DNA from: a virus
Taxonomy: Duplodnaviria; Heunggongvirae; Uroviricota; Caudoviricetes
IMG/VR virus record: IMGVR_UViG_2939121850_000001
Strand: one strand, 5' to 3'
DNA: 64,000 nucleotides
The position numbers and the translations under genes are program-made. The notes under the pieces are model-generated. The model was not told where the DNA came from, did no database searches, and saw only the letters and a program-made list of their open reading frames with translations. Shown piece after piece: positions 51,130 to 53,996 of this stretch (within the stretch, counting starts at the first letter, position 1; every line of letters begins with the position of its first letter).

Positions 51130-51570
51130 ATGGCCACACTATCTGATACAATAAAACCGAATAAAACATATCTTGAGGCGGTACTCCGTACAGCGTTGTT
51201 AGGAAAGACAGAAGACGAATACGTTGATTTCTTCCTGTCAGGGCTACGCGGGCGATTACTGAAAAATCCCCGCCTGTACCGCAGCTATGGCCCATACTGG
51301 CCGGAAATTAAAAAATTATTACTGGAGCGCGGTTATGGTAATTTCGGTCGTCTCGTTGACCGTGACGTTCGCAAAATTTACCGTTATGACCGCCCGGCGC
51401 TGACGCTCATAGCTGCGACGCTCTACAGCCAGGAGCGTTTTGATAATGGTCAGATATACTCAGCCTGGCATTTACTGCCAGTGCCTGAAGAGGTTGACGA
51501 CCAGGACTATGAGTTTGAGTCTTACGATTTGGAAGTTGAAGCCTTGGCACAGGCTGGAGAGAAAACTTGA
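51130..51570 (+). CDS. Ulx-like protein (synteny only)
   Basis: 146-aa ORF directly downstream of darB. Confidence 0.45.
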   Translation: MATLSDTIKPNKTYLEAVLRTALLGKTEDEYVDFFLSGLRGRLLKNPRLYRSYGPYWPEIKKLLLERGYGNFGRLVDRDVRKIYRYDRPALTLIAATLYSQERFDNGQIYSAWHLLPVPEEVDDQDYEFESYDLEVEALAQAGEKT

Positions 51571-51815
51571 AGAAGCGATACTACACAGTAAAGCATGGGA
51601 CGCTACGAGCATTGCAAGAGTTTGCTGATAAGCATAACGTTGAGGTGCGCAGGGAGGGGGGAAGTAAAGCTCTGCGCATGTACCGTCCGGACGGGAAATG
51701 GCGTACGGTCGTCGATTTCAAAACTAACAGCGTTCCCCAGGGCGTCCGCGACCGGGCATTCGAAGAATGGGAGCAGATCATCATAGATAACGCATTGCTC
51801 CTGAATGCTGATTAA
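51567..51815 (+). CDS. Lxc/Bof-like small protein (synteny and size)
   Basis: 82-aa ORF overlapping previous stop. Confidence 0.45.
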   Translation: MKKRYYTVKHGTLRALQEFADKHNVEVRREGGSKALRMYRPDGKWRTVVDFKTNSVPQGVRDRAFEEWEQIIIDNALLLNAD

Positions 51816-51816
51816 T

Positions 51817-51850
51817 TTATCGGGCAGTTTTATCTGCCCGATAAATTTTT
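51817..51850. terminator. Bidirectional terminator hairpin between lxc-like gene and SIR2-like gene
   Basis: TTATCGGGCAG-tttta-TCTGCCCGATAA followed by ATTTTT. Confidence 0.6.
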
Positions 51851-51861
51851 ATCGACCACAA

Positions 51862-53169
51862 TTACACTATATTCTTAACTATAAGGTTGGCGTCCTTCAA
51901 GGTGCCTAATGTTTCAATGTGGTTTTTTATCATTAATCTATTTGAGGCAATTATTGCAGGCCATCGTGTTTCCCAAGCTCTGTAAGCATACCAAGAAACT
52001 CCCCAATTCCTTTCTTTACTCATATGACCCATCGAGTATTCAACTGCGTCTAAATATGTTTTTTCATACTTAGTATTGCTAACCTCTATGATGCTTCCAA
52101 AATATATAAGCCATTTTGCCAACTGTTCATATTGCTCCCACGCTCCGTTATTCCTTGTTAACTTTCTCTTTTTTTCTATTATCCTTTCGAAAAGAGAAAC
52201 GACTTTATCATCATTCCAATCTAAACCTTCCGATATAATTGATGATATAATTTGATAAAATGAATCCTCTAATTTAAGATATTCATTTTTATAAGTATAA
52301 GCCCCCGAAACAACTTTTCTGATATTTTCGCGCGCTCTTTCAATGATGTCTTTAATGAGAGACATCTTATAACTTAATCGACTAAAGAAACAATCTATTT
52401 CTGTATTGTCAATTACCCTTATACCAAAGCAATAGAAGTAATAATCCTTCATATCTTGACTTACTTTGTTGCGAGATATCAAAAAGATATTAGAGCACAG
52501 GGCATTATTTTTCGAAAATTTTTTATAGTCATTTATAATTGCTTTAAGATTTGTGTCGCTTAAAGAATACCCTAATATCGCAACTGTATTTTCATGCAGC
52601 ATCGTACTAAGTTTTCGTGAAAAATAAGTATCGGAATTTATAAATCTGAAGTAATCATCTGAAGTGACAATCATATTTTTTGGCGAATCAATAGAACCAT
52701 GAATATGATATATTTTCACCTTGGATGGATACTTTGGAATTGGCAGACCGGGCGTGATAGACTGTACACTTTCATCTCCAACCAAGCATTCAGCCAACTT
52801 GTCATAATTTGTTGTAATGACACGGAATGAGTTTTTTTGGAAAAAATCTTTTATATTTGATATGTCTTCTCCAAGTTGAATTGGAGATATGATGTCAACA
52901 ATTTCATCATAAATCGACTTACCCTCAATATTGAGCTTCAAAGATAGTATTTGTGCGGCTTCTTCAAGACTCAGTGCTGGTGGTTTATCATCAGGGAATA
53001 ACGTGTCTTCCAACTTTTTGGCATTGTGAACTTTGCTGCAAACTTTTTTTAATAGTTCCTTCCACGTTGGAGCTTCACCGTTCGAGACTGCCTTTGAAAA
53101 GCCAGTCCCGGTAAATAGACAAAGCCTGCTTGTAGCGGTAGCGTATGCTAACTCAACATATTCGCTCAT
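51862..53169 (-). CDS. SIR2-like (sirtuin-fold, putative NAD-consuming) defence candidate with uncharacterised C-terminal domain
   Basis: 435-aa ORF, ~one-third GC; motifs GTGFS (aa 21-25), TTNYD (119-123), HIHG (155-158), VTSDDY (168-173), GYSLSD (200-205); own SD GGAG. Confidence 0.7.
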   Translation of the reverse strand: MSEYVELAYATATSRLCLFTGTGFSKAVSNGEAPTWKELLKKVCSKVHNAKKLEDTLFPDDKPPALSLEEAAQILSLKLNIEGKSIYDEIVDIISPIQLGEDISNIKDFFQKNSFRVITTNYDKLAECLVGDESVQSITPGLPIPKYPSKVKIYHIHGSIDSPKNMIVTSDDYFRFINSDTYFSRKLSTMLHENTVAILGYSLSDTNLKAIINDYKKFSKNNALCSNIFLISRNKVSQDMKDYYFYCFGIRVIDNTEIDCFFSRLSYKMSLIKDIIERARENIRKVVSGAYTYKNEYLKLEDSFYQIISSIISEGLDWNDDKVVSLFERIIEKKRKLTRNNGAWEQYEQLAKWLIYFGSIIEVSNTKYEKTYLDAVEYSMGHMSKERNWGVSWYAYRAWETRWPAIIASNRLMIKNHIETLGTLKDANLIVKNIV

Positions 53170-53225
53170 TACTTACTCCATTTACTTATAGTTCTATGGA
53201 GAAGTATACCCTAATGCATTGACGT

Positions 53226-53867
53226 TTATAGATAATTTCCTTTTCCAGTTAACTCCCCTTTAGGCACCCGTTTTTGTGCCAGTGTTTGGGTTCCGCGAAT
53301 TATGTTAATCAGAGGGCTTAGTAACGATGATTCCTGGCGGGCATCAACTTCTCCTGCCATTGCCCTAATGTAGTCGGCGCTTGCAACGTTGTTATATTCC
53401 GTTGCGAAGCAGCATAACAACGTCAGAACGTGCTCTGTCGTTATTTCGCTCCAGTTGATGTTGAAAAATTCATCGCCTTTTTTGTCATGTTCGGAATCGA
53501 AGATGCTTTGGTGAAGGATGTATTTGCCGGATTCCTTGCGCGGTAACTTGATCGCTTTCTGGCGTTCCAATTCCTTGTAAATCTGCATCGCTTCAATCAG
53601 TACCGGTCTGCCGTTCATGAAGGGATCACGCAACCTTACACGCTGGCCAACTCGACCGGTAATAAAGCTGTTTTCCTCTTCCACCAGCACGATAAAACCC
53701 TTTTCCTCTTTTTCTCGCAATTCGCGCAGCAGCTGGAGTTCCATATCGCGGCGGCGTTCAGGGTAGCTGGTCCGCTCAGCCATTATCAGCTCATTGTTGA
53801 TCCATGCGGCAGTCATTGACGCCGGTTTGCCGACGCTCATCGAAACAACGCATATTTTCTTATCCAT
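53226..53867 (-). CDS. Mat-like protein (synteny only)
   Basis: 213-aa ORF from ATG 53867 with SD AGGGG; backbone-like GC. Confidence 0.4.
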   Translation of the reverse strand: MDKKICVVSMSVGKPASMTAAWINNELIMAERTSYPERRRDMELQLLRELREKEEKGFIVLVEEENSFITGRVGQRVRLRDPFMNGRPVLIEAMQIYKELERQKAIKLPRKESGKYILHQSIFDSEHDKKGDEFFNINWSEITTEHVLTLLCCFATEYNNVASADYIRAMAGEVDARQESSLLSPLINIIRGTQTLAQKRVPKGELTGKGNYL

Positions 53868-53996
53868 AGCGCCCCTACAAAAAAGAAAAGCCACCAGCGG
53901 CGGCTTAGCAATACAACTGAAGGTAGCGCCCGGTACTCAGACTGTGCCGTCCATGGAATATTTGAAAAGGGATCCATCCGTACCGGGCGTGTGATG

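Follow-up and report, generated by a model that had tools for sequence, protein, structure and literature searches.

The locus analysed here raises the question of what function is served by a single gene that occupies, in a P1-like phage-plasmid, the interval between lxc and mat, the slot in which P1 carries a type III restriction-modification (R-M) system. The window, i.e. the whole stretch of DNA analysed, is 64 kb long and has a GC content of 0.483. A first-pass annotation, made from the sequence alone, had delimited an AT-rich islet at positions 51817-53225, and alignment with RCS47, in which the slot is empty (39 bp), found these borders to be essentially exact: homology stops at 51815/51816, directly 3' of the lxc stop codon, and restarts at approximately 53216-53226, at the mat stop codon, which gives an islet of 51816-53225. 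The features of the locus are as follows:

51567..51815, plus strand: lxc, the left backbone flank; its aligned 3' end is identical to lxc as annotated in RCS47
51814..51847, no strand assigned: hairpin with a 14-bp perfect stem and a 6-nt loop, an inverted repeat at the point where the lxc and SIR2 genes converge
51816..53225, no strand assigned: AT-rich cargo islet of 1.4 kb in a P1-type backbone, from the lxc stop to the mat stop
51862..53169 (stop codon included), minus strand: SIR2-family gene of 435 aa, from the open reading frame and its match to phrog_7567
53176..53179, minus strand: Shine-Dalgarno sequence GGAG, read from the sequence
53226..53894, minus strand: mat, the right backbone flank, an open reading frame annotated as mat in RCS47 and P1

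The low GC content reported for the islet was borne out, with 0.346 (51817-53225) versus 0.506 and 0.473 in the 2 kb to its left and right, respectively. The identity of the flanks, lxc, ulx and darB (plus strand) on the left and mat, ref and cre (minus strand) on the right, was likewise upheld by comparison with annotated RCS47 and P1. Direct or inverted flanking repeats and transposon ends were sought at the islet edges and none were found, and no Rfam RNA was found within the islet. It holds one open reading frame, of 435 aa with an ATG start, as had been annotated; the list of open reading frames contains no second gene or small partner in these 1.4 kb, a length that leaves no space for a second gene.

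The variability of the mat-lxc slot has already been published, as RD-1 (PMC6906374) and as variable region 1 (PMC9603915), and the islet, a low-G+C insert located exactly between mat and lxc, corresponds to the definition of both. In P1, for which the first-pass annotation had given about 5 kb of R-M genes, the slot holds res and mod together with IS5 (6.3 kb, or ~5.1 kb without IS5). Comparison of the interval, which the first-pass annotation had called a defence hotspot, revealed a cargo hotspot containing, besides the SIR2 gene, the type III R-M system (EcoP1, in P1), CapRel(SJ46) in the same orientation (SJ46 and eight IMG/VR contigs), a PIN protein (JL22), other cargo, or nothing, the slot being empty in 7 of 30 informative contigs. 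CapRel(SJ46) is a validated anti-phage gene (PMC9712102). Three allele classes of the SIR2 gene occupy the slot (99, 86 and 58% identity), with the C-terminal helical domain of the protein diverging fastest; diverged versions of the family are among the commonest slot cargo of P1-like phage-plasmids, and near alleles are missing from ~90% of P1-type backbones. The alternation with defence genes (R-M, CapRel) provides a defence context for the SIR2 gene, and counts in favour of the reading that is considered here moderately likely, namely that the 435-aa gene is a self-contained, single-protein abortive-infection module against phages, carried as exchangeable mat-lxc cargo. The first-pass annotation had interpreted it in this way, as a candidate, and each of the computational checks suggested there agreed with it.

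The expression signals of the gene speak less clearly for this anti-phage reading. The gene has its own Shine-Dalgarno sequence, as had been noted, with GGAG located 6 nt before the ATG. A hairpin terminator of its own had also been proposed: the hairpin itself is robust (arms 51814-51827 and 51834-51847, 100% complementary; dG -21.7 kcal/mol, z = -6.2, with none of 200 shuffles folding equally well), but the U-tract on the strand of the gene is poor (AAAUUAAUC, minus strand), a T-run lies on the plus strand, and the element at 51814..51847 went uncalled in a consensus scan for terminators. The hairpin is thus probably a shared, bidirectional terminator of the convergent lxc and SIR2 genes. 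It belongs to the cargo, as RCS47 is without it, and each other cargo class has its own, different hairpin at the lxc-side position. The mat gene lies on the same strand as the SIR2 gene and 56 bp upstream of it, and a consensus scan recognized no sigma-70-like promoter in this spacer. The control region of mat (Omat/Pmat/LPmat) contains the late promoter LPmat as well as a C1 operator, and its sequence is 100% identical to that of P1. Since a defence gene borne by a prophage needs to be expressed in the lysogen, the unrecognized promoter and the position behind a P1-identical mat control region weigh against the anti-phage reading. They would suit a gene that serves the phage, in the P1 lytic cycle or in anti-defence (e.g., an ADP-ribosyltransferase or NAD consumer directed at factors of the host or of competitors), and whose transcription would start, together with that of mat, at the late promoter; darB and ulx, which lie on the other side of the slot and have anti-restriction functions, point the same way. 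Such a role is nevertheless judged quite unlikely. Most family members reside in chromosomes without phage context, some of them inside type I R-M operons, the other slot cargo is of the defence type (R-M, CapRel, PIN protein), and the absence of near alleles from ~90% of P1-type backbones, together with the 7 of 30 empty slots, indicates that P1 can complete its life cycle without the gene.

The product of the gene consists of two parts, matched over the full length by phrog_7567 (E=5.9e-246) and modelled with AlphaFold (AF2) at pLDDT 85.5 and pTM 0.79. Its N-terminal half, together with the catalytic residues, and its C-terminal part map as follows:

52399..53169, minus strand: immune-type SIR2 (SIRim, PF13289) domain, residues 1-257, from Pfam, the DSR2 alignment and Foldseek
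52807-52809, minus strand: codon of catalytic N121, aligned to N133 of DSR2
52699-52701, minus strand: codon of catalytic H157, aligned to H171 of DSR2
51865..52398, minus strand: all-helical HEAT/ARM-like repeat domain, residues 258-435 (178 aa), family-specific

The ordered sirtuin motifs listed in the first-pass annotation are all in place (GTGFS at residue 21, TTNYD at 119, HIHG at 155, VTSDDY at 168 and GYSLSD at 200), and the sirtuin fold that it predicted was recovered by both kinds of search that it had suggested. The profile search matched SIR2_2 (PF13289) over residues 117-252 with E=4.6e-24 and 85.6 bits (cut-off 24.5), and the Foldseek structure search had DSR2 (E=2.5e-11), ThsA and KomC as its top hits, with TM values of 0.70-0.72 on those DSR2 chains that comprise the SIR2 domain alone. 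By sequence, the only relatives among solved structures are DSR2 (E=5.5e-10), KomC, ThsA and FAM118B. In the DSR2 alignment the TTNYD and HG motifs fall on N133 and H171, so that H157, which had been proposed as a mutant target, coincides with the catalytic His of DSR2; N121, D123, H155 and H157 are invariant in 31 family sequences. SIRim domains are distinguished by a Rossmann sheet of at least seven strands and by the lack of a zinc-binding Cys tetrad (10.1101/2024.09.18.613514), and both properties were found here: the AF2 model of the domain has seven beta-strands, and the six Cys residues of the protein are scattered, with no CxxC and no Zn-binding tetrad. The N-terminal half is therefore an immune-type SIR2 domain whose Asn/His active site is intact, and by analogy with its relatives the 435-aa protein would be an NAD+ glycohydrolase.

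The same data bear on the product name used by RefSeq/PGAP, 'SIR2 family NAD-dependent protein deacylase', which would imply a housekeeping enzyme. Only PF13289 was returned at E<=1 in the Pfam scan, where the classical sirtuin family is absent, and the Zn-binding Cys tetrad on which classical sirtuins depend to bind their substrates (10.1101/2024.09.18.613514) is missing, as is any CxxC. Every one of the closest relatives with a solved structure is an immune NADase, and neither the patchy, mobile distribution nor the AT-rich islet is what a housekeeping gene would lead one to expect. A deacylase function is thus hardly credible, and the RefSeq name is probably misleading.

The C-terminal region, which had been described as helical, Trp-rich and unassignable, indeed contains seven of the eight Trp residues of the protein within residues 318-403. 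Five Trp are invariant in the family, and the complete set of invariant aromatic residues comprises W344, Y347, W353, W393, Y396, W399 and W403. The HEAT-like similarity of the domain is generic and uninformative as to a ligand, and it yielded no specific structural match to DSR2. In a HMMER search of 1.84e9 representative proteins the domain occurs solely behind SIR2, in one family of ~434 aa; a portable sensor combined with swapped effectors was considered and rejected on this search, SIR2 being its only partner. The domain is also the faster-evolving part of the protein: mean pairwise identity across the family is 0.556, versus 0.689 for the SIR2 domain, the two near alleles share 76% versus 93% identity, and the third allele 50% versus 64%, respectively. 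The ratio of amino acid-changing to synonymous codon differences is 41:52 for the C-terminal domain and, for the SIR2 domain, 19:50. This pattern of sequence divergence looks sensor-like and is counted in favour of an anti-phage module, with the C-terminal domain as a putative sensor or regulatory domain. Counted against it is the invariant Trp/Tyr cluster, which is more readily reconciled with a structural core, with an interface between the domains or with a small ligand that is itself conserved than with a rapidly evolving surface for protein binding.

The family comprises 691 homologues of ~434 aa each, is strongly conserved over many bacterial phyla and resides mostly in bacterial chromosomes without phage context. 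Identity remains at 53-60% across classes of Proteobacteria, an unusually high conservation for an immune sensor, which also argues against the anti-phage reading. In E. coli, the family is present in ~1% of complete genomes, with 65 of 66 copies on plasmids, and outside E. coli it is mostly chromosomal. No close copy of the gene was found in INPHARED phage records; close copies were seen only in plasmid-deposited records and IMG/VR contigs. The absence of a TIR, HerA or Argonaute (pAgo) or STAND partner, reported for this locus in the first-pass annotation, holds there, extends to SMC, and is mirrored in 58 other loci from many phyla, where no such partner recurs, no neighbour cluster is common to more than three loci and any one Pfam or PADLOC family accounts for at most 3 of 149 neighbours. 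The family is stand-alone, without a conserved partner gene. In Treponema a member is inserted in a type I R-M operon, with hsdS on one side and hsdR on the other; in Massilia the member follows hsdR at a distance of 35 bp, in Stutzerimonas its neighbour is a NERD-UvrD helicase, and the copy in the E. coli chromosome adjoins the integrase at the end of a prophage. These settings are counted in favour of the anti-phage reading; defence genes are not dominant among the neighbours overall, which is counted against it.

This distribution also allows a selfish, toxin-like module to be weighed, in which NADase activity would be lethal to cells upon loss or disturbance of the phage-plasmid and would have no anti-phage role. 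Active SIR2 NADases are intrinsically toxic, as established for DSR and ThsA, the carrier is a low-copy plasmid prophage, and the E. coli copies are almost all on plasmids. Plasmid addiction is nonetheless very improbable: neither an antitoxin gene nor an antitoxin RNA was found in the islet, family members outside E. coli are for the most part chromosomal, and P1 already carries phd-doc for addiction.

SIR2 defence proteins are well known in many architectures. The first-pass annotation judged that the protein does not fit the familiar SIR2 systems, and this assessment stands, since DSR1/2, Thoeris, Lamassu, SIR2-HerA, SPARSA and Avs5 each have defining features that were tested for and not found here; the profile searches matched no known defence family of this architecture, and no published description of the ~434-aa family was found in the literature. 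DSR1 and DSR2, defence-associated sirtuins that deplete NAD as single proteins, are the closest in design, being single genes with an N-terminal SIRim SIR2 domain, the same catalytic Asn and His and then an all-helical repeat region, and DSR2 is the closest solved structure of the SIR2 domain. In contrast to the present protein, which had rightly been called far shorter (435 aa versus about 1000-1260 aa), they have a long C-terminal helical sensor region, here reduced to 178 aa. The DSR equivalog profiles NCBIfam NF041818 and NF041819 score 26.5 and 23.3 bits, respectively, versus cut-offs of 1400, and align only ~100 residues of the SIR2 core. A truncated DSR was rejected on these scores and on the constant length of ~434 aa in hundreds of homologues.

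ThsA is similar in size (~476 aa) and has an N-terminal SIRim NADase domain, and the PADLOC ThsA model matches the SIR2 part of the protein (E=1.2e-17, profile positions 107-227 of 478 only). It could therefore be asked whether the protein is the effector of an unlinked signal generator, responding as ThsA does to a small-molecule second messenger made by, e.g., a TIR protein or cyclase encoded elsewhere. The seven invariant Trp and Tyr residues could form a ligand pocket, the high family-wide conservation suits a conserved ligand, and a ThsB-like TIR gene occurs in 2 of 149 neighbours elsewhere, though none is present in the islet. This arrangement appears unlikely: with its all-helical, HEAT-like build the C-terminal domain is no nucleotide sensor of the SLOG, Macro, CARF or SAVED type (ThsA carries SLOG, or Macro/TM), no partner recurs in the 58 loci, and a mobile single-gene cargo should function in any host that it enters. 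A ThsA without ThsB was likewise rejected, as the C-terminal domain is not SLOG.

Similar partial matches were obtained with other systems. LmuA of Lamassu-Sir2 has a similar length (a 433-position profile) and an N-terminal SIR2 effector, but its PADLOC model (PDLC03856, E=4.5e-16) covers positions 14-224 of 433 only, leaving the C-terminal half unmatched; the window lacks an LmuB SMC-like ATPase, which is not recurrent elsewhere either, SMC_N being detected in 2 of 149 neighbours, of which the one examined is an ABC-type ATPase. An orphan LmuA was rejected on both counts. The best-scoring PADLOC model is the single-gene candidate PDC-S25 (E=2.5e-27), considered here together with phrog_2695, which also has a SIR2 domain; its best stretch is confined to the SIR2 core (profile positions 127-288 of 517), and PDC-S25 itself is longer and differs in the remainder. 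The domains and partners that define SIR2-HerA, SPARSA (SIR2-APAZ/pAgo) and Avs5 (SIR2-STAND) are absent from the protein and the islet, and HerA, pAgo/APAZ and STAND genes are not recurrent in the 58 loci. The Sir2 homologue of Vassallo 2022 was rejected as a named equivalent, as it belongs to PD-T7-2 and has a HerA-like partner. AbiH and human FAM118B (SIRanc) are stand-alone SIR2-like proteins of the SIRim clade (10.1101/2024.09.18.613514). FAM118B was detectable by sequence (E=7.4e-5), no Abi model was among the PADLOC matches at E<=1, and neither AbiH nor FAM118B matched the family-specific C-terminal domain in the searches run. Finally, CapRel(SJ46) occupies the same slot in the same orientation as a single AT-rich gene of similar size (373 aa) with its own hairpin, and combines an N-terminal toxic enzyme with a C-terminal regulatory or sensor domain, the latter putative in the SIR2 protein. 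CapRel is a RelA/SpoT-type tRNA pyrophosphokinase and unrelated, so the analogy is one of position and logic only. Slot variability and SIR2 defence in general were already known, and the SIR2 domain with a family-specific helical domain would add a further architecture to this kind of defence.

If the 435-aa protein acts as an anti-phage module, homology and analogy with DSR2, DSR1 and ThsA suggest that it would do so by NAD depletion and abortive infection, and the following course of its activation may be envisaged. In the uninfected cell the NADase would be kept inactive. Upon infection, the helical domain would recognize a ligand supplied by the phage, with a phage protein as the likeliest candidate, or would shift the oligomeric state; the SIR2 active site would then open, NAD+ would be hydrolysed and depleted, and the infected cell would cease to support phage replication, with protection of the lysogen population and of the resident P1-like element as the outcome. 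As the three allele classes differ most in the helical domain, their trigger specificities probably differ as well. A bolder proposal, put forward tentatively, is that the protein is the smallest self-contained SIR2 immune receptor, in which a 178-aa helical module of four to five repeats, bearing the invariant Trp/Tyr cluster, both gates the NADase and senses infection directly, with the alleles recognizing different triggers.

Few immune effectors are as widespread as SIR2 NADases, which range from bacteria to humans (FAM118B/SIRanc), and to our knowledge their off/on switching is understood only in large or multi-component systems, such as DSR2, ThsA and SIR2-HerA. P1-like phage-plasmids, for their part, also spread antibiotic resistance. 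Should this compact (435 aa), partner-free family prove to protect against phages, it would offer a minimal model for SIR2 activation, would be a factor in the phage-therapy host range for E. coli with P1-like plasmids, and would give what has been published as a 'variable region' of P1 a new reading, that of a defence hotspot. Were the small-receptor proposal also true, the allele classes would constitute a natural allelic series in a tractable E. coli phage-plasmid, parallel to CapRel(SJ46).

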